NCBI RefSeq assembly: GCF_024521635.1
Contig: NW_026250403.1
Coordinates: 1,922,001-1,986,000 of the forward strand
Direction: 5' to 3'
Length of the DNA stretch: 64,000 nt
Source: Tricharina praecox
Taxonomy: Eukaryota
Shown one piece after another: positions 46,666 through 64,000 of this stretch. Numbering within the stretch: the first letter of the stretch is position 1; every line of letters starts with the position of its first letter. A model generated the notes under the pieces. That model ran no database searches, was not told the DNA's origin, and saw nothing but the letters and a program-made list of their open reading frames with translations. Position numbers and translations under genes: made by a program.

Positions 46666-49600
46666 ATGTTGCGGTCGACTCTTCGTTCATCGCGCCGGAT
46701 GGGCGGCTCTCTGAACCCACGGTGCGGCCTCGTTCGGCAACCCGCCACAGCTTACCAGTCATCGCTATCTACACGACCCACCGCCTGCGGCTCATTATCG
46801 ACATACCCAAAACCTGTTGCGGTACAAAAACGACATTACGCTGCCATCCCCGGCGTGGTATGTATCTCCCGTCCTCGGCCAAACGGAACTCTCCGGGGGT
46901 GTACTTTAAACTCTCCTCCCCCGGGTTTTCGAGGGAAGCGAACATGAAAATGAAAGCCTGCTGACAGGTGTGTGTGCTCCGTCTGCTACTAGGATCCGAA
47001 CGATGCTTTCTTACAAGGAAACACCGCGAACTACATCGATGAAATGTACATGGCGTGGAAAAAAGACCCCACCAGCGTCCACATCTCATGGCAGGTCTAC
47101 TTTCGCAACATGGAAGGCAACGGCCCCGCTTCGCAGGCGTTCCAGGCTCCCCCCACTATTGTTCCCACCGCTACCGGCGGCATCCCATCGATCGTCCCCG
47201 GCGCCAACCTCGGCGGTAACACTGACGTCACCAAGCACTTGAAGGTACAGCTCCTCGTCCGCGCCTACCAGGTTCGTGGTCACCACAAAGCAAAGATCGA
47301 TCCTCTTGGCATTCGCTCGGATGCAGATCTGCGACAGGCCAGGCCGCGAGAGTTGGAACTGGACCACTACCAGTTCAACGAGAGGGACCTGGACGACGAG
47401 TACACTCTTGGACCCGGTATCTTGCCCAGATTCGCTACCGGAGGTCGGGAAACGATGACTCTGAGAGAGATCGTGGCCGCGTGCGAGAAGATCTACTGTG
47501 GTTCTATCGGAATAGAGTACGTGCACATTCCCGACAGGGACCAGTGCGACTGGATCCGTGAGCGTGTCGAGATCCCCACTCCGTACAAGTACAACCAGGA
47601 CGAGAAGCGCAGAATCCTGGACCGTCTCATTTGGTCTTCCTCATTCGAGACCTTCCTTTCCACGAAATACCCCAACGACAAGCGATTCGGACTCGAGGGC
47701 TGTGAGGCCTTGGTTCCAGGAATGAAGGCTTTGATCGATCGCTCTGTGGACTATGGTGTAAAGGATGTCGTCATCGGTATGCCCCATCGTGGTCGTCTCA
47801 ACATCTTGTCCAACGTCGTGCGGAAACCCAACGAGTCGATCTTCAGCGAGTTCAGCGGTTCTGCCGAGCCTGGTGACGAGGGTTCCGGTGACGTCAAGTA
47901 CCATTTGGGTATGAACTTCGAGCGGCCCACTCCTTCCGGAAAGCGCGTTCAGCTGTCTTTGGTTGCCAACCCTTCGCACTTGGAAGCTGAGGACCCGGTG
48001 GTCCTTGGAAAGACCCGTGCCATCCAGCACTTCAACAACGATGAGGTCGAGCACAAGACCGCCATGAGCGTTTTGCTGCACGGTGATGCTGCCTTCGCTG
48101 CGCAGGGAGTCGTATACGAGACTCTCGGCTTCCACGCTCTGCCCGCTTTCTCTACCGGCGGTACCATCCACGTCATTGTCAACAACCAGATCGGTTTCAC
48201 CACCGACCCGCGGTTTGCGCGCTCCACCCCGTACTGCTCGGACATTGCAAAATCTATCGACGCTCCCATCTTCCATGTCAACGCCGACGACACCGAAGCC
48301 GTCACCTTCGTTTGTCAACTGGCTGCCGACTGGCGTGCCGAGTATAAGCGCGATGTCGTCATCGATCTCGTCTGCTACCGCAAGCACGGGCACAACGAGA
48401 CCGACCAGCCCAGCTTCACCCAGCCGCTGATGTACAAGAAGATTGCCGAGAAGGACCCTGTTCTCTCCATGTACATCAAACAGCTGATGGATGAGGGAAC
48501 TTTCACCAAGGAGGATATCGAGGAGCACAAGAACTGGTATGTTGTTTTATCTGGTGGCTTCTGATGGAATGTCCGTCTAACATCGATTATAGGGTTTGGG
48601 GAATGCTTGAGGATAGCTTCTCAAAATCGAAGGATTACCAGGCGACCTCTCGGGAATGGCTCACTAGTGCCTGGAACGGCTTCAAGTCACCCAAGGAGCT
48701 GGCTACTGAAGTCCTTCCTCACTTGCCCACCGCTGTCTCCGAGGAAAACATCAAGGAGATTGCCAATGTCATCTCCTCAGTTCCCGAGTCGTTCACGGTT
48801 CACCGCAACCTGAAGCGTATTCTAGCCAACAGGAAGAAGGTTGTCGAGGAGGGTACTGGGATTGACTGGGCTACCGCCGAAGCGCTCGCTTTTGGAAGTT
48901 TGCTCAGAGAGGGAAAACACATCCGTGTGTCCGGACAAGATGTCGAGCGTGGTACTTTCTCCCAGCGTCACGCCGTCCTCCACGACCAGGAAAATGAGGG
49001 AACCTATACTCCCCTTCAGCACGTCTCTGAGGATCAGGCCTCGTTTGCCATCTGCAACTCCTCCCTGAGTGAGTTCGGAGCGTAAGTACAATGTGTTACC
49101 ATCGGCGTTATGTGAGTGCTAATATATGATTGTAGCCTCGGTTTCGAGTACGGATACTCGCTTACTTCTCCTGATGCCCTCGTCATGTGGGAGGCGCAAT
49201 TCGGTGACTTTGCCAACAACGCTCAGTGCATCATTGATCAGTTTATCGCCTCCGGAGAGTCCAAGTGGCTCCAGCGTACCGGTCTGGTAATGTCGCTTCC
49301 TCACGGTTACGACGGACAAGGACCCGAGCACTCTTCAGGCAGGATTGAGCGATACCTTCAGCTCTGTAACGAAGACTCCCGTGTCTTCCCCTCGGCTGAG
49401 AAGCTCGACCGCCAGCACCAGGACTGCAACATGCAGATTGCCTACATGACTACCCCCGCCAATCTGTTCCACATCCTGCGAAGACAGATGAACCGCCAGT
49501 TCCGCAAGCCGCTCATCATCTTCTTTTCCAAGGCGCTCCTTCGCCACCCTATTGCGCGCTCCGACCTTGCGGATCTCACTGGCGAGTCACACTTCCAGTG

Positions 49601-50039
49601 GCTCATCCCCGATCCTGCCCACGCCACTGGCGCCCTCAAGGCACCCGAGGAGTGCAAGCGTCTGCTCGTGTGCACCGGTCAGGTGTACGCGCAGCTCCAC
49701 AAACACCGCGCGGCCAAAGGTGTAGACGATGTAGCAATTGCGCGGGTGGAGCAATTGCACCCATTCCCCTTCGCCCAGCTCCGTGACGAGCTGGAGAAGT
49801 ATCCGAATGTGGAGGAGATTGTTTGGACTCAGGAAGAGCCCCTCAACGCCGGTTCTTGGGCGTACGTGCAACCCCGCATGGAGACCATCCTCCGACAGTC
49901 TTCCAAACATTCGGACAAGCACATCCGATACGCTGGCCGTGCGCCGAGTGCCTCAACTGCCACCGGCATCAAGTCTGGCCACATCCGGGAGGAGGAGGAG
50001 CTTCTTAACCAGGCTCTCGGTCTGGCGCCGTTGGAGTAG
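46666..50039 (+). CDS. KGD1: Mitochondrial 2-oxoglutarate dehydrogenase E1 component; 4 exons
   Basis: Arg/Ser-rich presequence from ATG 46666. Introns 46858-46992, 48537-48592 and 49082-49135. Motifs [57 protein letters not shown] and [14 protein letters not shown]. Confidence 0.98.
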
Positions 50040-52131
50040 GTAAATAACAATTGATGAGCTTTTTTTCCGTGCCGTTAGAGGGTGTAAGGAGGGGTGTTTG
50101 GTTTTTTTGCTTTCTCTTTACACGTGACTTTTCCATCTTTTCCTTGGCTTTTTTCTTATTTGGCTGCGATGTGGGTTCTCTTTTCTTTTCCTTCCCGTTC
50201 TTAGTTGTTTTGGCACCCGATAACTTGCTTGCTTTAACTTCATCCCGCCTTTCTTTGTGGCTATGGTTCTTGCATGAGGGTTGGAAGAGAGTGGGTGGAT
50301 GAGACGATGGAGAGCACGAGTTGTATATCTACTTTGAGACGGAAGCTGTTTGTTTGCGCGCTATGATGTTTCCTTTTTTAAGTTACCCTCATACCATTTA
50401 CCATCAGGACCAATTATCTGCTACTTTCGGCCCGTATGTGGTGTCTTTTCGGCCAGATTGATGGCAACACGACATACGTATGGTTTATTCGTAAGAAACG
50501 AGACTTGGGGCACCTCTTGAGTCTGGCCGACTATCGACTAATGAACTTTCCACTCTACCCTGTCGCATTTGGTACATATGGTGCCAGGCCGCGGCCGGCT
50601 GAGATGAAGCCCGGACGCTCCCCGCTCCGGGATTAATACTGGAACTATATACGAGCCCCGAGTCAGCCCAATCCACAGAGTAGTCCATCTGTCCATCCAT
50701 CCAGGGCATTCCTGCAATCTACATACGACTCGAGCCGCACGATCAGCAGCCAAGCTGTGCTTCACTCCGCGACCACCCCAGCGCAAGCCCGGGTTGAGGT
50801 CTGGCTAGCCGGGGACATCCTCGACCTGTCACTAACGGGGTGGGGGAAGGGGGGATCTTCCCGCGGCAACCTGCAGAGCAGAGTTGCTCGGTGATATTCT
50901 ACATACGGGAAGCCTGTCGATGACTAATTAGGGGAGGTGGGACTCGAGTGGATGGATGTGTTCGGGAACTGGCGGCGACTGTGCGCGGGAATTGCAAAGT
51001 GCTACATAAGTAAGTATGTAGGCCGCGCAAAAGTGCGGGTGGCCGCTTTTGCCTGCGTGGGCCTGGGGGGGCTGTGGAGATGGCCGGCTGGCCGGTGGGA
51101 GATGATTATCTGGGTTTACATGGCACTAGATATCGCTCGGCAATCGCTTAGATCTATCCTACATGGGGTAAATCAATCTCTCCACTTCCGGGAGTGGGGG
51201 CATCACGACTCGCGAGAGGAGGCGGAACTACCTATGTATTCAGGGCTTTTTACAAAGTAATGTCGTGACCAAAGTCGACTGAATATATTGCGATGAAATG
51301 AAAGAAACATAAATGAATCAGATGAAATGCTCATTATATCTAAAGAAATCCGAAACTGGTCGAAAACACTACGATGAAAGCAAAAGAAATAGTCAAAATC
51401 ATCAGACATCGACCCTAGTAAATCTGTATTCTCTGAGACTGCTAGATATAAATCCGAGCGGTAGTACTACTGGAGACCTTCGGCATCAATCGGGCCCCAG
51501 TTTTTGCTACTGAATGTACCGGTAAGGGCTACGTTACTCACCGATGCTGTTAGTTCTTTAGCTTTCGAAATTTGAATGACGGGTACTGACCTGGAGGTGT
51601 GATGTTGCTTATCACATGTGACTGTCGCTGTTCTCGCTCGCCGTTATCCCGAATATCTGATACTTCTCCATCGGGGACTCTATCAGTACAGAGTTTCTCA
51701 AGTAAGGGACGAGTCAATAACTTGCCTATTTTTGATGGGTCTGGAAGGATAATTGGCCCGGGAAAATGGTTCCAGCTGGAGCTCGCGCTGGGATCGCGGG
51801 AGGGGTCCAGCGACCTACTTTGATGCTGATCCGGCTCGAAGATATCATCAATTGCTACGTGTTCATCCAGAGACTGTCAGTAAAGACGTTTCACGAGATG
51901 GGCAAAGTCGGTAGCATGCCTTTTTGGGGTTCGCCTCGAGGAAGACTACGAGGCAGCAAATCACTCCAGAAGCTGCTCCCGCTGGGATCCCCAAGGGGGT
52001 CGGGTGACGCAATCCGATGCTGTTCTTCCTCGTCCCCATCAAGGACTATGCAGATAGGGTGCTCGGGTGCCACCTATTAATCCAGAGATCGTGTCAGCAA
52101 AGCGTTCCCCAAGAAATGGATGAAGGCAGTA

Positions 52132-55100
52132 TCATGCCTTCCTTTGATCCTCGCCTTCATCTCCCTCGTCTGCATCTCCCTCGTCCGTGACATCTATATA
52201 ACTCCGGCCGATACCCCTCTTCTTGAAGCAAGAATCACAATACCACTTCTCGTTGTGGCGCGGTGCCCATGACAACCCAACACAGCTTAAATGAAACCAC
52301 TTGCGTGGACACTTTTCACCATCACACGCCAGCAACATTTCGTCGCTAGTCTCGTTACAGTGACAGCACGTATTTTTTCCTTCCCCCTTATCGGATTGGA
52401 ATAAGGTGGGATTTAGTTGTAGTCGTATTTGAGCTTCCTGTTGGAGCTGTAATAGCCGGAAATACTCATAGAGTTGCCACTGAGAACAACTTTGAACTTG
52501 TAGCTTGAGTTCACCCCATGTCGGATTCCAATCACCCGGCGGCCGGAGGAAATCGAGCTTTTCGATGATGGGTATATGTTCCTTCAGTGGATATCGTTTG
52601 TCAAGCGTAGCGATTTCAGAAGGCTTGTTGCTGAGTGTGAAAACAGCTTCGAGCTCCTGGCGGGTCATCATAGGCAGACCTGATGGTATCCGATCGCCAA
52701 TTCGCACAGCAATTTTTTCTGCGAATATATTAGTACATATTGCACTAAACCTAGCCACTGGTAAAACTTACCGGATTGCGCCACGAGAATGGACATATAA
52801 AGCTCTGGGAGATTCAGCCGATATGCCCGTGACCTTGCTTCTCCCCAAGTCTTGACCTCGAATATCGAACTGTAGTCTTCGCAATCCCTTCCATCGGTCG
52901 CTATGAGGCAGTCGTCGAGCTGGGCGGGATCTTTCGAGGCGAAGGTGAGTAAAAGCGGGGAGTCTCCGCAGATCCGATGATTATTCCTGAGTGTAAGCAA
53001 TTGCAATTGCGCAAAATGATCCAAGTCCTTCATCCGCTGCAGCCTGTGGTATTCCATGAATTTCCATTCCAGCTCTGAATATGGCAGTACTCCTCTTCCG
53101 GTTTGAGGATCGTCAAAGAAAATCTGGATAGGGCTGTTAGATAGGACTTCATTCAAAGCCTGTGTATATGCAACCGTTTCGCGTGGCGACATTCTTTCGA
53201 CTTCCTTCTCGATTTGGTTGGCAAACTGAACGATGAAGCGTATGTAACGAGTGATTTTCAATTTCTCGGCAGATGTGAGAAGCAGTTTACGTAGCTCAGT
53301 ACCCGACGGGATGAGGGGCTTAGAGGAGTACTCCCTGAGAACGTTTTGCTAAATATGGCATTAGATGGATTCCTACAAATGGAACGGATTACGTTACCCT
53401 ATGAAGCAGTGATACGGCACTTGCGGTACGTCCGCCCAAAAGTAAGAAGGATGACACCAGTCTTAGAGCCCTATAATCGGAAAGAAGAAGCCTGATCCCA
53501 GCGAGATGCTGTGCCCATTTAGGAAAACCGATAGCCCCATCGGCGTGTTTGACGTCTGGTATCGGCTTCTCCCACAGACGATACGCTGCTTCTATCTGTT
53601 GCGGCACAATTTGCTTATGTGAGTCATAGTTACGGGGGTTCCTTACTTTCCGAAGCGAATGTATCCTCGAAAGTCCTCCTACTACGGGGCTACCCTCCTC
53701 CACCACAAAAAACCAACACTCGTGCTTTGGATGCCCTAGATTCCTCTCAGTTCCGAATACACTTCCGTCAGGAGGGTCCTCGTATGTTGGTCTGGCCTTT
53801 GTATCAATGTCTGCTGGCCTGGTAAGAGTGAGAGGCGCCGTGCTCCTAGTTGATCGTTTGCGCGATATGCTTATCAAGTCTAGAACCTAGGGCTCTCGTG
53901 TTAGCCGGGAAGGCTTAGAGAACCTATCCATACTACCTCAGTATTTTCAGGCGGATTCTGACGGTGCTTTGCTAAATCGGCGTGATAATCTTTTATGTGC
54001 CTCTGAAGCGCCACTTTCGAAGGTAGGCCAATGTCCTGGTATGTGCAGTTTTCATCGGGGCACTTGAATGGCAAATCATGTCTATCTTCATGTTTCTTGC
54101 GCTGGAGAGCTGTCTCAAACCCTTCGATAGTAGGTAATGGACATGATTGTCGATTGCACTTGTAGAGTTTCTGTCCATACAGTCTTCGTAGAGTTTCCAC
54201 GTCGTCTGGATTAGTTGTGCTTGCCGCATTAGAGTCCCCCTCGAGAATATCCTCCAACATCTTCCGGAGTCGCCTGTTTGCTCTTTCTATGACCAACGGG
54301 TTGTTATGGTTGCACCACGCTTCAAGCGCTGGTCCCACAAATCAGTCATCTTTTTCTATTTCCATAAGATCGATGTAGTACCTTCAGTTCCGCCGCCTAT
54401 CTTTCGCCCTAACTGTCTGCGATATTCAACGATCATTCTAAGGCCTGGATGTCCCGCGTTTTCCGACCGAGGAACCATTGATTGACTGGAAAGCACCTGT
54501 TTAGCCTTCTGAGTGGAGTGCTTCTCGAAAACTCGTCGAAGAGGATCGGAGAGTGTATCGCATTGGGGATAGCGGCGGTAAGCTTCCAATATGTGCTTCA
54601 CCCAGCTTCCTTGCGCATAGTCGTAAAGTCGTAGGTCGCCGTTCAGAATCAAGGCAGTGGCTTCTTCGTCGCCTACATCTTCATCGAAACACCTGAAGGC
54701 AAAATAATTTGTGCAGGTAGTCGCGATTTCGAGCTGTGATATCCCGCGATCCACGAACGGGCCGCTATGAGGGCTCAGAAGGTACCTGAATGCTGTGAGC
54801 GTCACATCTTGGCAATGGTAGCGATAACTAACTCCTTTGCAGAAAAATGCACGAAAACCAAGGTATCTTCGCCGACAATCTCCACAATTGGCCCACATAT
54901 ATTTCGGAGTTGTGAACGGAGAGGCCTTTCGGAATTGTGAACAGTGATGTGGCCGGATATTATCGCACAAGCGTCTTCTAGTTCTCTCATGGTAAGAGCT
55001 CGGGTTGCACAAGTCATCCAACGGAGTACTTTCTTCGCCAAAGCTCGTTGCTCTTGGTCTAACGAGTTGATCCGGTCCAAGATTCTTTCATAGCTATATA

Positions 55101-57124
55101 TGCGGCATCTAAGTAACATTGCGCAATCGCATGAGTAAAGGGCACTCACGCTTGATCGAGCCCTTTTGGGAGGTTGTTTAGAGTTTCGGTAATTTGCTTG
55201 ATCGTCACCTTGGAGAGCAAGCCTTTGATGACCAACCGTACCCATAGAAACATGCCTTCCCTTGGTTTAGCATATGCGCACTGGCGCCCAAGACGAGGAG
55301 TATTACCATCAGCACGACCAGAGAGTGAATTGATGATGTGCTCTCGCATATCTGGTGCCTCTTCTAGTTCCAGCTCCTCGAATAAGTCGTCAGTAGCTGA
55401 TTCGATGTATGTGCGAATATCTTTCTTGTTCTGTCATGCAGTGTACAATCAGTCAGCTTCACGTTTAGATTCTAGCCAAATGAATTATGAGCGTGCGTAC
55501 CTTGTTTCCGACAGCAATTCGTTTAGTCTTCTTCAGGAGAAACTTGCGTATGTCCGGAAGGTCTTGGCTTGCAACAAATAGCCTTACTGTGCCATTGAAC
55601 GGAGATTCGACCAAATATCTCGACAATATTGGTAGAAGGGTTGCGCGTTCCGCTGAGGGAAGCTCATCTAAACCATCAATGATGACGTAGATGTGACTTG
55701 AGGTGGATGGCGAACTCGCGCTAATCAGGCTGCTCAAGATCGTCTTGCACTTTAAGGAGTTGATCGAATGCGGGCTAGCTACGTACTCCGCGTACACATA
55801 AGGTATAAGCTGCTCATCATGAAGTATCATCTGATATATGAAGCTCCGGAGTATTGCTAGACAGGTGTTCTTGTCTGGTTCTTTGTAGCTGCAGAAGAAG
55901 TATAGCACAGGTGGTGGGTTGGGGTGTTGGGATTCGAAGTAATCAAGCACCGATGCAGTGAGAATTGTTTTCCCTGTAGCAAGAACGCAATGTTAGGATT
56001 CGCATGGGGTGGATCTATAAACATCACTCACCTGCGCCTGGTTTTCCGGTAAGCCACAAGTTGCAATCTCCAGCGAGCCATTCCTGTATTTCCACCGATC
56101 GAAGAAGCCACTTGCTTGTTCTCGGTGTTCTTAACTGTAGGGCATTGTCTTTTGATACATCCACGTCTGCTGGAGAGAGCCAATCCGAGCATTGCTTCTT
56201 TCGCTTCGCTCCTCTTTCCCGCGTAGTCTCCTCAAACCGCTCCCGCGCGAATTCTCTGGATATTTGCGCTCTTGCAATATCCTCGGCACAAGCTTCATTG
56301 TCGATCAATTGCTGGTGGCTTTTGATGTTCAACAAGATGTTCCGAAATCTGGACTCAAAGTCGTTCCATGAGAAACTGAACAGTATCTTCCAGGCTAGCT
56401 CAAGTAATAGGTTAACTAGAGTTTAACGGAGATAATTGAGGAGAGTGTCTTTATGTACCTCCTCGTCGGAAGAATTTGAGAGTCCGTCTATAAAAATCTA
56501 GAATGTCCTCATACAGAAGTGAGATGACATACTGTATCCGCTCGCTGTAGCAGAAGATGGTTGCATAAAGGGAGAAACGGGGGAGATTCTCGCCGATTTT
56601 CTGAAAGGCATCCAGTAACTTTTCGAAGCTCTCGATGTATCCGCCAGATAACTAAGTACTTGCTTAGTTGTCTCGTTGGTAAAAGGAAAATACCGTGCAA
56701 TTCAGCTAAGCTGAACGGCGTTGCCATAGTACCTGCAAGAGTAACTTTAAGGGTCCCTGAAGAAGACGTGGGCGTGAGCGGCGAGTCTGATTTGTAATAC
56801 TTCGGGAACCAAGGAATAACAAACCCAGAGAAGAGATCCTATCTCAGGCTTCGCCTGAATGAGGACTTCAATCACCTTCGCGTATTGTGACAGGCAGTTG
56901 ATGAATGGCTCAAGGCGCTTCATGTTCCGTAGCGACTTTCTTGTACTCTGCTCCGCTTCCAGATTCGTAATCAATACCCATACCTCATCCACGGTGTTGA
57001 TTCGATGGAACGATTTCTTTTCTTCAGCATTAAGACTGTCCAGAAAACGGCCGATTGCTCGTTCGAACGCTGATAGTACTGCTGATGGTACTGCTGCTGG
57101 TGGTACTGCTGCCGGTAGTGACAT
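52132..57124 (-). CDS. NLR-like NACHT (STAND) NTPase with helical N-terminal domain, winged helix, tandem C2H2 fingers and C-terminal ING-type PHD finger; 13 exons, ~1430 aa, possibly extended at the 3' end
   Basis: Exons 57124-56825, 56756-56733, 56651-56459, 56394-56032, 55973-55501, 55430-55307, 55255-55150, 55093-54833, 54785-54382, 54328-53937, 53886-53398, 53348-52772 and 52718-52132 total 4293 nt with all phases compatible. Walker A LWLTGKPGAG|KT, YFFC, Walker B YVIIDGLDE, ADGMFLWVRLV, LPKGLDQAYERIL, VHFSAKEYL. Confidence 0.82.
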
Positions 57125-57393
57125 GCTGACTCGAGGCGTGAAGGACGATAAGAAAGATTGTGAGCGTGTGAAGTGGCAATGCGTGCGTGCGAAACCCTGG
57201 GTTTAAGTGCGCATGCGAAACTCCCAATTCAAGTGCGCGTGAGCGGGGTCCTGGGTTACACAGGCTCCGCCCTGGCTCCGCCCTGGCCACGCCCTCAGCC
57301 CCCACACCTAGGCGAGAATTGAACATTCCCGGTATATATGCCTTCCCGGCACACCCCAAGCACAAACTGCACAAACTACACGAGCGTTTCGCC
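57125..57393. promoter_or_regulatory. Putative 269-bp bidirectional promoter between the NACHT and SNF2 genes
   Basis: Divergent ATGs at 57124 (-) and 57394 (+). Contains TATATA at ~57333 and a repeated CACAAACT. Confidence 0.55.
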
Positions 57394-60300
57394 ATGAACA
57401 GATCAACCACTTCGTCCATCACTCGGTCTACCGATTTTCTTTCTGTTCCGAGCACAAAGCGTCAGCGCACCAGCAAGGACGGAAGATGGCGCTCGAGATC
57501 ACCAAGCGAGTCATCGAATGGAGATATGTCCCGATCAACCACCCCGATGTTCGACCAGAGCCCATCGCCTAGTGCTGGTAGCTCAACATCCATGGAGTTT
57601 GAGTGGAGCCAAAGCATCGGCCAGCAAGCACAGATCGCACAAGGGGAAGATTGTCACACTGCAGACGAAGTCGCAGACGACGAAGAATGTTTTGGTACAG
57701 TGAGTCTTTTGGGCCGGGTACTTGCAGGCATTGAACATGGTCTCTGAGATAACAAGATTTGCTGTCATTGCAGCTCTACCAGAGACGTTTTAGAAACCCT
57801 CCAAGCTCGATGTTCCAGTTCATCTGTATTTCACGTATCTTTAACGATCGTCGCACCTGCATCGAAAAGTGTGGAGCTGTCTTTGCAGACTGGAGACGGC
57901 ACAATCCTCGGCCATATTGAGCAGAATATTCGAACTACACTTCATTCTTTGCTCGTTCGAGATCTGGTTAGGATCCAAGGCGTTGCTCTTCTCCCGTTCG
58001 GTTACAACCAAGTTCGCTCCAAATCGAATCAGAAGGTGACAACCGAAGTCTATCTCAACGTTTTCGGCCCTCCAGAGGTTGCAGCTCCAGTAGGGAGGTT
58101 TCTGTCGGACAATTCGGTGTTTCTACAACATCCAATATTCCCGGAACCCGGTTTCGCGTACAAAAACCCTCATTTGATCTCAAAATGTTATTCCGGAATT
58201 ATCACCGAGTGCACAGCCACTGGCGGAGTCCCGGTAATACCAAACAAGCCAGTACTGAATAATTGTACAGCAGTCCTTGAGGCCACCGAGTTGCTGGACT
58301 TCTTCAACAACATCGGCAAAGCAGCGATAATGGATGAAGTACATGGTGACCATAATCTCAAAACCCCACTTATGAGGTGATTAACCCGCTGCTTTTTCAA
58401 GCAATTAAGCTAATCCTTCGAAGTCACCAAAAGCAGGCTTTATATTTTCTCCTACGAAGGGAACGGGGACTTTCTGTCTTCGACACGTCTTCAGCCGCAA
58501 TAGGAAAGATTACATGGTTAGCGAAGACATCGAAATTTTCCATTTCTTATACTGATGCTGCACCATGCGTGATCTAGTGATATCAAGGGAGGGATACTTG
58601 CGGATCATATGGGACTCGGAAAAACATTATCGATTCTATCTTTGATTACCGGCACGTTGGAAGAAGCCCGCCGAGTGAGAGCCCAAGAGCCCATCGGCAG
58701 AATTTGTGCGAGTGGAACTACCCTCATCGTGACTCCCGTTTCAAGTCAGTGGCTCATCGTCTTCGTGAAGATAACTCACCGACTCGTAAGCTAACGTATC
58801 ATTTCAGCGCTGGGAAACTGGGAGCAACAGATATCGACGTATGAACCCTCTTTCTGGAAACATAATCCACTTTTATGTCTGACGATTATTAGGCATGTCC
58901 TACCAGGAAGGTTGAGCGTACTCGTCTACCATGGCAAGAACCGGGCCGGAAACTCGAATGCCGCAACCCTGTCTCGATACGACATTATACTTACAACTCC
59001 ATCCGTCGTCTCCCATGAATGGAGCTCTGCTCATCATCCACTTCACGAGCTGGAATTTTACCGTCTCGTGATCGATGAGGCGCACGATATTCGAACCGAG
59101 AAGACACAGCGCTCGCGAGCTATATGCGCTCTCAATGCCGGACGTCGCTGGGCCGTCACAGGAACACCAATCCAAAACAATCTTATGGACATCGCCACGC
59201 TTTTCAAGTTCTTGCGGTACAAGCCTCTCCATACTGCCGTCGGCTTCAAAAAATACGTCCTTACCTCGCAGCCCGGGACAAAAACCGGCATTGATAATCT
59301 TCGGTCTGCATTGAAAGCAGTTTGCTTACGTAGAGCAAAGAGCATCATCGATTTACCGGAAAGGAAGGAGCAGATAAGGTTCCTGAGTTTCAACACTGAG
59401 GAGAAGGCCTTGTACGAATTCCATAAACGGCTTTTATCCCGAGAATATAACGCTATGTCCTCATCCGGTCCTGCGGAGGCTCTCAAATGTTTATTAAAGC
59501 TGCGCATGATTTGTGACCACGGACATGACCTGATATCTACGGGATCGTCGACGGCATCTTCCGCTCTTGAACCATCGATAACCTGCTGCGTTTGTAATCA
59601 GCAGATTACAAGTCACATGCAGTTTGAAGGGCTGGGCTGTCCCCATCGATCCATGTGTGCTGGATGCATAGAAATAGTGCCACTAACCGACAGCGACATG
59701 AGAGACTGTGATCAGTGCTCCGTCGACGAGGTTACGACACCGGAAGCGACCCCAAGCTTACTACTATCGGACTATCCAGTCTGTCCGCGCCCTTCCACCA
59801 AGGTCAAAGCGTTGCTACAGATGATTCTTAGCGAGAATACAGACGACGGTAACGTGAAATCAAAGCAGTGAGTTTGCAGCATCAACCCGCCTCATCCTCC
59901 GTGACTTACACCCGGGCAGTGTTGTTTTTTCCGAATGGACACGAATGCTCGACCTCGTTGGGTTCGCTTTGCACAATTCGGGGATCAAATTTTGCCGTCT
60001 AGATGGATCGATGCAAAGATCCCGACGCGACGCAGCCCTCTGTGAATATCGCGAGAATCCGCAGTGTACTGTGATATTGATATCCCTCATGGCCGGCGGA
60101 GTAGGGTACGCGCATGCTCTCGCCCATGTTTCGGGGTCCTGGCTGACAACAGATTTTCAGAATTGACCTTACCTGTGCGTCTAGAGTACACCTCATGGAG
60201 CCGCACTGGTATACACATCCATCCCGCTCGAGTATGCCTGCAGAGCTGATGAGTTACATACAGGAATCCGATGGTCGAGCTTCAAGCGCTTGAGCGAGTC

Positions 60301-61017: not shown

Positions 61018-61725
61018 CTAGACCAACACAATCCTTCCGGCACCGCGAGCACGGCGTGTTGCACTGAGGCAGTAGCTAGCCACATATCCCGCGGCAAAGA
61101 ACAGCAGCACGCTGACAACCAGCGTGTAAATATTCAGAGTTCTTCCCTCGCCCTGGTACCTGCGTTTCTGGGCTTCCACCAACGCGAACAGCGTTACGAC
61201 GACGAGCGTGTTTGCGACGATGGCAGCGATGACGATGCGGAGAGAAAGGAGCCTGCGGAGCCCAGGGCAGCTCTGCATGTTCCACAGGCAGACGTAGATT
61301 ATGGTGACGGCGAGGACGATCGTGCTGGCGATCTTGCTGTATAGCCCAAGGGTGCGCGCGCGCTCGGGGTACGAGCTGTTGGAGTGGTGCGCGAAAAGAC
61401 ACCATACGAACACGGTGTGCGCCAGGATGGGGATGATGCTGAGCGCGGAAATTATGTGTCTCTGGAATGGCGAGCAATCAGCACTGAAGGGAAGCGACGG
61501 GATGGAACATGTGTGGATTATGCGTACCTTGGTGGCGTCCTCGGGGTACCTGCTCTGGCACCCGTGGTGCGAACTCTCAGACTCCATGATGGCAGCTTGG
61601 ATAACGGAGACGGGAACGGTCTCCTCGTTTTGGAGGTTTCGTGAGGCCATCCAGAGACGGAGTTCCCTCGCGGTCTGAAGGCTCAGGATGACCGGATCCT
61701 GCTCTGCGACTGACGACTCCGACAT
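61018..61725 (-). CDS. Hypothetical small multi-pass membrane protein (~4 TM); probable in-frame intron 61462-61527
   Basis: ATG at 61725, several hydrophobic helices, and a GTACGC..GCTGAT..CAG intron of 66 nt. Confidence 0.6.
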   Translation of the reverse strand: MSESSVAEQDPVILSLQTARELRLWMASRNLQNEETVPVSVIQAAIMESESSHHGCQSRYPEDATKVRIIHTCSIPSLPFSADCSPFQRHIISALSIIPILAHTVFVWCLFAHHSNSSYPERARTLGLYSKIASTIVLAVTIIYVCLWNMQSCPGLRRLLSLRIVIAAIVANTLVVVTLFALVEAQKRRYQGEGRTLNIYTLVVSVLLFFAAGYVASYCLSATRRARGAGRIVLV

Positions 61726-64000
61726 GGTGAATAGGACTAGAGTGCTACTTGGCGATTGTTACGCGATTTGATGATGGTTTTTCGTTCAATGTTGTTATGG
61801 ATGGCGGCTGCATAGGACGGTGGGGGAGGGCTGGAATATATACCTATGCGGGCTCCGAGGCTGTGCATGCACCATCTACTCTATGCACCATGCACCCATG
61901 CGATCTACCTACCCAGTTACTTGTTGCGTGTTTCTCGATAACAACCCCACAGCCACTGAGTCAGGGTCCGTGATACCCGCCATGCATAAGGCGCGTGATT
62001 ATGCACTAACCTGTTCCATAGAACCTTTCCGTGAGGCTTCCACCTCCATTCCGTGCTGTTTCCTTGAACTACATACTTTCCAAGTTCTCATGGAAGGCTC
62101 AACGCTCAAGCGCTCCAGAGTCCAGGCCCTGTTATTGAAATGCCTACCAATTTTCCGGAATCATGCACTACCAAGGTAGAGACTGTAGAGTAGGACTGAG
62201 AGCCCCAGTACTTACTCTACCGGTATCCTGGTGAGAAGTGGAAGTCAGTACGAGTTTCCTTAGTCCCAAGTCCTTAACGATATTAATAAGCTGACACTAT
62301 TCCAAATACAAATCCAGAGAAGCAGATCTTCCATCTTCAAAGGGCAAACCCCTGCGGCCGGTTGCTGGCGGACGGTGGCCTGACCTATTATGTATGTATG
62401 TTGGGCGAAACTGACCCGGCCCCCATGAAAAGAATTCATCCCATGGTAAAGAGTTTCAAGAAAACGATCTATTGTCTCCCTACGTCACTAATAGTACGCA
62501 AGTGCGGCGAAGCAGTCACAGCGGCATTAGTTATGCAGTACTACGGTAGTTAGTACTAGGTACCTATGGTGATTCCCGGAGCGGACGAATATTCCTCCGC
62601 TACCAAGCACTTAGGTACTTCAACACACCGAGCCAACTACCTACATTCTGATATGTGCGATAGTGAACTGGTCACCGTCGTGGGGGAAACCGAAAAGCTT
62701 CTACATTCGTTCCCATTCCCGTATATAGCGGAACTGGGACGGTGGTCACAGACAGAGATCGATAGTAACCAGTTAATTGGGGATATGTACAGGCAACTCC
62801 AAAGAGCTATGAAACAACGAAATACGGTATCTACCAGACACCAGACTACCGTACGAAGACGTCGGACGTCCTTGAGGCTTTAATTGCTGGCAAGGCGGGC
62901 GGGGCGATGTATTGTACAATGCATACCCAAACCGCAACCGCGACAGCACTGCACGCCCACGGGATGGTCGTTCGGCGGTTAGCCGCCTAGAATAGGTGAG
63001 TAGATGGCCGCGTGTAACTGCAAGCCGCGTGTACATGACATGCGTGACACTCCAAAGCTCCAAGCCACGCAGTGCGGGGGATTCTTGCTCTCGGTACGCC
63101 TCGGGGGGGGGGGGGGGGGGGGGGTTTACTTTTGGCGTCACTTCAGGAACGGTAGTTTAGACTTTCAAATCCCTAAGATCATGCCAAAGGCAGTCGACCG
63201 CGTCCGGCGAACCTCGAATGATGATGTGACGGCAAACGTGGAAGCTGGAGATGGAGGCGGGGGTCGAGTCCATCTCGGAGCACTACTAATACATATCACG
63301 GGTTCACAAGCATCGAGTTCGTCTCCCCGTCACGGAAAAAACCCCCGCGTGGCCCAGTGGTCTGGTACATGCAATCGGCGAGGGGAGTGGAATGAAACCT
63401 CTCGGTCCAATCCGGGGTAAGAAACCTTTCATTCCGCTCTTGGGGTTTCCAAGCCACCCCACTGGGGGGGTGATGGTTTTTGCGGGAAGTCGAAACCCGG
63501 GGTGCATGGAGTATCACTCGTCGCAAACCCAAAAGCTGCTAATATCACTTTTTCTTTTTCTTTTCCGTTTAATCATCATGTTCGTTACTTCCCAACGTAA
63601 AGCCACAAACCGGAAACCAGCAGCAACGTTCCGGAGATAGATGAGCCGTGTGGTTGTGTAGACGCACTGGTGACTGACGCCTCGCAATCGGGCATACTAT
63701 GCACTGCAACAAATTTATAACCGCCCCGGATATGTAGGAGATAGGTAGTAGAGGCGCCAGCTACCGGAAGGGCTCGTCCCGACGATGGCCCTCTACCGGT
63801 ATCGGTCAGGAATAAAGACCCCCCCTCCCCCACCCCCGCATCACGCTCCTCGCCTGGTTTGTATTTTTGCGTGAGCGGCTTGCTTTTTTTTGGCTCTGCG
63901 ACAGGTAACCATCGACTCCGTTCGGAGTATATATACTACCTAGGTTCCGCCCAGCCCTGCTCACTGGTTCCGCTCATTCAATATCATTCCATCCCAGCCT

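Follow-up and report, generated by a model that had tools for sequence, protein, structure and literature searches.

A heavily spliced NACHT-finger gene of Tricharina praecox with an ING-type PHD in an exchangeable C-terminal slot

Among the NOD-like receptors (NLRs) of Sordariales, 34 carry C2H2 fingers and one, schves-1_g9971, is entered in a single table row as Goodbye-T-NACHT-PHD (PMC12258605, main text and NLR table), and because this row is already published a NACHT combined with a PHD is not in itself new. The main text of that work does not contain the term PHD, nor does its NLR table contain KIX; its head-to-head analysis is confined to NLR-NLR pairs, and its sole decoy case is the CHK-2 kinase. 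For MIC1, a major integration clade of grass NLRs with a conserved motif named CID (bioRxiv 10.1101/100834), it is described that host domains were captured repeatedly, in independent events, at one fixed C-terminal position directly downstream of this motif, with captured DNA that retains its introns, donors that stay intact and a head-to-head partner gene. We find these same features at a locus of the fungus Tricharina praecox, in a gene for an NLR-like protein on the reverse strand of a 64,000-nucleotide stretch (the window; contig NW_026250403.1, positions 1,922,001 to 1,986,000, or G000:C1:1922001-1986000 of a genome of 38.4 Mb in 104 contigs). The noteworthy part of the locus is a C-terminal slot, exchangeable among relatives and derived from regulators, which follows a conserved NACHT-finger core and here holds an orphan segment and a PHD finger.

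Like the Goodbye/NAD1-T-NACHT-zf-C2H2 NLRs as tabulated in PMC12258605, the window gene encodes an N-terminal helical domain, a NACHT and C-terminal C2H2 fingers, with no repeats; it differs from these Sordariales NLRs in that two atypical fingers and a 465-aa orphan precede its PHD, which can be traced to an ING donor. When compared to the published outline of MIC1 (10.1101/100834), homologous receptors are found to carry diverse captured domains (PHD, KIX, Tup1 WD40, a bZIP N-terminus and one unassigned), and a conserved motif, two fingers and a phase-0 intron, lies upstream of the fixed breakpoint in 8/8 loci, which is an analogue of the CID but not the CID. MIC1, however, is an NB-ARC-LRR (leucine-rich repeat) protein with a helper NLR as its partner, whereas the window gene has a NACHT, no LRR and an SNF2 helicase as partner, so that neither the head-to-head helper NLR nor the NB-ARC-LRR body is present. 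The window gene is fungal and of independent origin, and recognition of effectors by it is putative. We regard it as MIC1-like in pattern at most and not as a MIC1 member. With the ING proteins (ING1-5, Pho23, Yng1, Yng2) the gene shares the PHD, and a loop longer by two residues is common to it and the neighbouring ING gene; unlike them it lacks the ING N-terminal domain, has the Tyr and Met of the methyl-lysine cage replaced and is fused to a protein of the STAND class (signal transduction ATPases with numerous domains), and is not an ING protein. The main text of PMC4986451 contains none of the terms PHD, C2H2, SNF2 or finger, and we found no paper that describes NACHT and SNF2 genes paired in fungi, the capture of Tup1, KIX or ING by a fungal NLR, or a slot in fungal proteins for integrating co-regulator domains, in a search that for PMC12258605 extended neither to its supplementary files 13-17 nor to one large table.

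Transcript evidence came from contigs of two public runs from two studies (X1 and X2), compared with positions 51200-57900. Two other runs, X3 and X4, gave no contig here, from which nothing follows for expression. We presume both runs to be RNA; their contigs lack introns and are 99+% alike, and about 75% of the sampled words are present. One contig per run crosses the gene (4876 nt in X1, 4854 nt in X2), with no base differences listed, and the introns are skipped at their canonical ends. The joints shown (15 of 17) comprise four new introns at the 3' end and 11 of the 12 introns that had been predicted in an earlier reading of the DNA (the sequence-only reading). Intron 1 (56824-56757) is not among the joints shown and is supported by depth arithmetic: with this intron the bins from 56576 to 57023 are predicted to sum to 671.6, as observed, and both values are 303.2 for the bin 57024-57247. 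Introns 1-12 are all GT-AG and 47-81 nt long, whereas introns 13 (52137-52074, 64 nt), 14 (51919-51855, 65 nt) and 15 (51725-51663, 63 nt) are GC-AG, and intron 16 (51590-51529) is again GT-AG.

The 12-intron model of the sequence-only reading, 4293 nt for 1430 aa with a single stop and GT-AG introns throughout, is reproduced exactly, and the three introns that it had singled out for junction evidence (53936-53887, 53397-53349 and 52771-52719) are all spliced in the contigs of X1 and X2. The 24-nt exon is real, being joined in the contigs and encoding the same peptide as in the relative P0002, and the Walker A motif is indeed split by an intron, in phase 1 within its last Gly codon. The proposed end of the protein did not survive: the stop at 52134-52132 lies within the spliced-out GC-AG intron 13 and three more introns follow, so the protein has 1567 aa, with its stop codon at 51469-51467. 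The fusion therefore stood and its length did not, four introns and 138 C-terminal residues having been missed. The order NACHT, winged helix, two C2H2 fingers, segment without known motif and PHD in a single gene holds, although DUF7708 at the N-terminus, the kinship of the PHD with ING and the SNF2 gene in head-to-head position had escaped notice, as had the main point, the exchangeable nature of the entire part behind the fingers.

It is very improbable that two genes, one for the NACHT and fingers and another for the orphan and PHD, were joined by read-through or by contig assembly. Contigs are graph paths and not molecules, so that a contig over two genes is no proof of a single transcript, and they are blind to minor isoforms, including any that stop at 53901. 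The junction, however, consists in both runs of a spliced 50-nt GT-AG intron flanked on either side by 255 letters, which contradicts the case named in the sequence-only reading as fatal to the fusion (transcripts ending after the C2H2 exon), and an equivalent intron with similar first codons after it is found in 8/8 relatives. The NACHT-to-PHD fusion is one real, heavily spliced gene, and its splicing as such is ordinary. Run X2 also has a contig at 51200-51504 with a 126-nt loose end at 51504. Automated annotation had been expected to fail on such a gene, and this is borne out: P0001 and P0003 differ in peptide at the 24-nt exon, and P0001 ends at 680 aa. The public annotations of both seem to miss this exon, and P0001, which groups with the Tup1-type loci L061, L063 and L064 described below, may be a truncated model.

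Table 1. Features of the NLR-like gene and its divergent neighbour, in window positions
Feature	Position	Strand	Basis or remark
Whole coding span of the NLR-like gene	51467..57124	-	17 exons, 16 introns, 1567 aa; contigs from ~57158 to ~51291
Exon 1, aa 1-100, start of DUF7708	56825..57124	-	Pfam DUF7708 E 0.011
Exon 2, 24-nt micro-exon, aa 101-108	56733..56756	-	Contig joint with side 23; depth; peptides of relatives
Exon 3, aa 109-172, DUF7708	56459..56651	-	Pfam E 4.8e-7, above cut-off; contigs
Exon 4, aa 173-293, ends within Walker A (aa 289-296)	56032..56394	-	
Exon 5, aa 294-451, NACHT/NPHP3_N core and Walker B (aa 391-397)	55501..55973	-	NPHP3_N E 9.5e-23; NACHT E 7.2e-5
Exons 6-7 (55430-55307, 55255-55150), aa 452-527, helical region after NACHT	55150..55430	-	
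Exon 8, aa 528-614, winged-helix domain	54833..55093	-	GPIID_WHD E 5.2e-10
Exon 9, aa 615-749, conserved part of core	54382..54785	-	
Exon 10, aa 750-880, two atypical fingers (54158-53982)	53937..54328	-	
Intron 10, phase 0, candidate integration site	53887..53936	-	Contig joint; 8/8 related loci
Orphan segment, aa 881-1345 (exons 11, 12 and first part of 13)	52384..53886	-	
ING-type PHD finger, aa 1353-1399	52228..52368	-	
Tail: introns 13-16, exons 14-16	51529..52137	-	Contigs and depth
~100-bp end of dispersed repeat: last codons, stop, start of 3' untranslated region	51417..51518	-	
Shared divergent 5' region, 270 bp ATG to ATG	57125..57393		26-bp direct repeat at 57185-57236
SNF2-family helicase gene, Cys-rich RING-like insert	57394..60300	+	3' end approximate; RING-like read by eye

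The core of the protein resembles that of fungal NLRs. Pfam finds DUF7708, NPHP3_N/NACHT, a winged helix (GPIID_WHD) and the PHD, and the central NACHT has both Walker motifs intact. DUF7708, whose match is above cut-off, may correspond to the Goodbye domain. Pfam finds no WD40, ankyrin, TPR or HEAT repeats in the scanned C-terminal open reading frames (ORFs) covering aa 750-1429, and because it lacks C-terminal repeats the gene does not have the tripartite make-up of fungal NLRs (PMC4986451, PMC12258605) and is to be called non-canonical NLR-like. By their Cys2His2 patterns, C-x4-C-x16-H-x3-H at aa 807-833 and C-x4-C-x15-H-x4-H at aa 839-865, the fingers lie C-terminal of the NACHT as in the NACHT-C2H2 subgroup tabulated in PMC12258605. 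Neither finger is scored by Pfam, both being too atypical; the finger region of P0002 gives a 0.93 feature match to ascomycete clusters that bear zf-C2H2. A protein search with the NACHT exon returned four proteins among 780 candidates, two of which, P0002 (Wilcoxina) and P0003 (Trichophaea), have the same fingers and a core with 55% identity (over aa 3-898 and 6-865) and are unrelated beyond. Both finger regions are kept in 8/8 related loci and in a distant paralog on contig C26 of the genome (24-38% identity). Five of the 14 NACHT matches in the genome fall within 80 kb (G000:C47:7123-86580), which makes an NLR cluster.

The related loci (L061-L068) came from a metagenome scan in which 8 out of 204 candidate stretches were retained, with 51-56% identity in the NACHT exon; they derive from three assemblies and are perhaps paralogs of one or a few close species. 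In each of them a phase-0 intron directly follows finger 2 and the first codons after it resemble those of the window gene, homology ends a few to about 25 codons past intron 10, and no locus matches aa 869-1567 of the window gene. What follows instead falls into several types. In P0002 and P0003 the fingers are followed by KIX_2 (E 1.5-2.8e-9) and Q-rich sequence, likewise without similarity to aa 869-1567, and in P0004 by ordinary C2H2 fingers. The slot of L062 and L065 is a KIX split by introns; that of L061, L063 and L064 is a WD40 propeller, of which a piece in L063 has Tup1 (1erj, E 2.7e-45) as its best PDB match; and that of L067 and L068 opens with about 120 residues that share 61-67% identity with the N-terminus of L072, after which come local repeats. 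L072 itself shows a pattern of basic region and coiled coil, interrupted by an intron, which we read as a bZIP and whose two halves Pfam leaves unscored. The slot of L066 matches no identified module type. Thus, in the close clade, 4/5 module types trace to transcription regulators. KIX_2 with Q-rich sequence is presumably of the Med15/Gal11 type.

L062 and L066 show how such a difference looks at the DNA level: their identity of 89% extends to about 77 nt beyond the intron, some 3 kb are then replaced, and in the downstream flank identity resumes at 92%, so that the difference is a recent swap between alleles or duplicates. In a tree of the core (13 rows) each module forms one clade and the window gene stands outside them. 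The ratio of nonsynonymous to synonymous substitution rates (dN/dS) is 0.11-0.24 for the core (6 pairs) and 0.06-0.24 for SNF2 (4 pairs), in contrast to ratios of 0.69-0.93 in the Tup1 piece (3 pairs) and of 1.11 in the repeat-prone bZIP piece (1 pair), the module values being taken from the modules of relatives only, with 2-3 near-identical copies each. The aligned exons of the three Tup1-type copies are free of stops, and indels in these copies leave the reading frame intact. Several minor observations concern the same loci. The amino acid differences among the Tup1-like copies are grouped in short stretches where the repeats start, a distribution that a binding face would be expected to show. 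The overlap of L064:16042-16269 with L067:1-225 suggests cassettes with different modules side by side in one genome, and the match of L063:13358-13478 to L066:832-952 may be a mere 120-bp repeat. The Q-rich exon after the KIX (L062:4341-5090, L065:9996-11075) ends in Cys-x2-Cys-x6-Cys and may be a second captured piece; we take this pattern to be similar to the start of a Zn2Cys6 cluster.

In the window gene itself the module, made up of orphan, ING-type PHD and low-complexity tail, spans 7 exons, whose 687 codons are open and spliced in frame; under a uniform-codon model the chance of 465 open codons between fingers and PHD is about 2e-10. The orphan was searched exon by exon, and the large protein collections were searched with exon 12 only. 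Exon 12 has no significant match in a word search of 5.8 billion proteins (longer proteins only), none by phmmer against 1.84 billion representatives, no usable match in the ESM Atlas (recognition 1697), none in metagenome contigs (0/113 candidate stretches) and only itself in its own genome, where it is single-copy. Exon 11 has one match in the genome (E 0.157) and one in the PDB (E 0.39), neither significant, exon 13a has no PDB match, and Pfam, NCBIfam and PHROGs give nothing credible for the orphan. This blank is weak evidence, because the queries were exon-wise and few fungal proteins were covered, and the conserved finger exon also matched nothing. Single-sequence AlphaFold did not fold the orphan (pLDDT 36.6 and 35.0). 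A diverged KIX within it was rejected (shuffle p 0.99 and 0.42), and we did not accept an internal repeat, for which the best p values in 14 comparisons were 0.022 and 0.033.

The PHD is of ING type. The ING family (ING1-5, Pho23, Yng1) makes up the top 20 of 25 PDB matches (E 6.5e-13 to 5.8e-8), and all eight zinc ligands (Cys4-His-Cys3) are kept, even though synonymous sites relative to the neighbouring ING gene are saturated. The methyl-lysine cage is not intact: Ser1360 and Trp1376 are kept, while the Tyr has become Cys1353 and the Met Leu1364; Asp1368 and Trp1394 of the Arg2 pocket are also kept. For ING3, whose cage is Tyr/Ser/Met/Trp, PMC5000080 gives a change from Tyr to Ala that weakens binding from 0.93 to 46 uM, about 50-fold. 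The closest PHD in the genome belongs to an ING gene 13 kb off on the same strand (56% aa identity, E 5e-17; 67% nt identity over 128 nt), ahead of two other ING-like PHDs. This gene (L060, G000:C1:1987145-1989515, just past the window end) is intact, with ING N-terminal domain and PHD, and the PHD of the window gene is likely a local copy of it, as judged from these similarities. Pfam gives no ING match for an N-terminal coiled-coil in the window gene, and its C-terminal 690 aa match ING loci in the PHD only. Another ING-like PHD, split by an intron, lies at the end of a charged low-complexity protein (G000:C2:715255-715356).

In the tail, introns 13-15 are homologous to each other (z 5.5-7.2, the top 3 of 120 intron pairs) and exons 14 and 15 are duplicates (z 7.7), from which the consecutive GC-AG introns are read as the product of tandem exon-intron duplication. 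An introner origin was rejected, since these introns have no further copies in the genome and the duplication extends to the flanking exons. The repeat at 51417-51518 has at least 40 other places in the genome (41 matches including itself, most with 75-91% identity) and is at least 500 bp long; among seven of its loci (L026-L032) an inverted copy of the end about 500 bp on is present in one (L027), and we take it that the repeat may be a MITE-like element (miniature inverted-repeat transposable element). No signature of repeat-induced point mutation stood out, and Rfam has 0 matches in 50500-58000.

The SNF2 partner (Pfam SNF2-rel_dom E 2.8e-39, Helicase_C E 2.9e-7), for which a contig of its own, starting at 57386, covers the 5' part, is head-to-head with the NACHT gene in 6/8 related loci, or 6/7 of the informative ones, L062 being too short to tell. 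The C26 paralog also has an SNF2 gene alongside, and the best non-self matches in the genome to the NACHT and to the SNF2 protein are these two neighbours, about 3 kb apart; when three other NACHT paralog neighbourhoods are considered, an SNF2 gene is found at C26 only.

We tentatively favour, at somewhat less than an even chance, the reading that the gene encodes an NLR-like sensor, predicted to be nuclear, whose integration slot takes up baits derived from transcription regulators. The spliced transcript, the intact Walker motifs, the fixed breakpoint, the differing modules and the conserved SNF2 neighbour are directly supported, as are the ING origin of the PHD and the fast evolution of modules in relatives. 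The mechanism draws on established STAND biology and on the analogy with grass MIC1 as outlined in 10.1101/100834. The conserved core and the exchangeable slot after the phase-0 intron would make up an NLR-like switch, and DNA that encodes parts of the fungus's own transcription regulators would repeatedly have entered the slot, which here holds the orphan and the ING-derived PHD. The protein would work in the nucleus, where the module would serve as bait, mimicking a regulator that is hit by a foreign effector (of a mycoparasite, bacterium or virus) or being met as non-self; bait that is bound or modified would release the ADP-bound switch, with output via the N-terminal domain, the SNF2-RING partner or both. 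The degenerate cage is more in keeping with a bait than with a functional H3K4me3 reader, and frame maintenance and donor skew favour function, though from few events. Several observations weigh against this sensor. The eight loci amount to about four events and not eight, because they come from three assemblies and L064 overlaps L067; L066 has no adjacent SNF2 gene, and the C26 paralog ends in ordinary ankyrin repeats. A dN/dS near 1 is open to relaxed as well as diversifying selection and leaves bait and junk unseparated, and the bZIP value may be distorted by mis-pairing of repeats. The count of 4/5 regulators is biased, because conserved regulators are easier to recognise than other donors; no KIX donor gene was found in the window genome; and of the 687 module residues 465 could be traced to no donor and did not fold in AlphaFold. 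The tail looks like a recent patchwork of duplicated exons and a repeat-derived stop.

The modules may instead be working tools of an ATP-switched transcription or chromatin regulator, which we consider rather unlikely: its fingers would bind DNA, the PHD would dock on histone H3 tails and SNF2 would remodel, with other copies recruiting activators (KIX) or repressors (Tup1). The identified modules are indeed all nuclear, the PHD retains its zinc ligands together with Ser1360, Trp1376, Asp1368 and Trp1394, and the partner is an SNF2 ATPase under purifying selection. However, one core then carries modules of opposite sign (coactivator and corepressor), two cage residues of the PHD are changed, and against a conserved core the modules drift, with dN/dS of 0.7-1.1. 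Neutral capture at the 3' end, in which the core and SNF2 form the functional unit and a rearrangement-tolerant end exonises duplicated DNA, repeated exons and the end of a transposon, all without function, we judge unlikely. It would accommodate the near-neutral dN/dS of the modules, a single-copy orphan without homologs, a tail of duplicated exon-intron units with a repeat end, and the decayed cage; it sits poorly with 687 codons kept open and spliced in frame over 7 exons, with the retention of every zinc ligand at saturated synonymous distance from the ING gene, with the stop-free exons and frame-keeping indels of the Tup1-type copies, and with donors skewed to transcription regulators.

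The locus family is a naturally occurring series in which a single core and a single breakpoint are combined with several different captured regulator domains whose donors can be identified, and because of this series the question of decoys can be tested directly by module swaps and site-level selection. The argument for integrated decoys in fungi has so far relied mainly on a single kinase (PMC12258605). The SNF2-NACHT gene pair gains a candidate input. Going beyond the proposed sensor at this locus, a broader claim, which is possible though doubtful, is that of a 'major integration clade' in fungi, in which an ancient pair of genes, for a NACHT-finger switch and an SNF2-RING motor, would have had its slot reloaded again and again with copies of the transcription co-regulators of the fungus itself (ING PHD, KIX, Tup1 propeller, bZIP N-terminus) and would thereby guard the transcription machinery against foreign effectors; if so, the captured modules would constitute a list of nuclear targets attacked by enemies of fungi, with the 465-aa orphan as a bait or sensor domain of a new kind. 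The three consecutive GC-AG introns and the 24-nt exon explain why annotation truncates or divides such genes.

Two further genes or ORFs of the window lie outside this pair. At 46993-50039 on the forward strand there is a 2-oxoglutarate dehydrogenase E1-like gene, recognised by eye, which was not found beside the eight related loci and whose GC content at third codon positions is 0.72, as compared to about 0.5 in the NLR gene. At 61021-61758 on the reverse strand, a hydrophobic ORF of 246 aa has a weak match to 7tm_3 (E 0.019).

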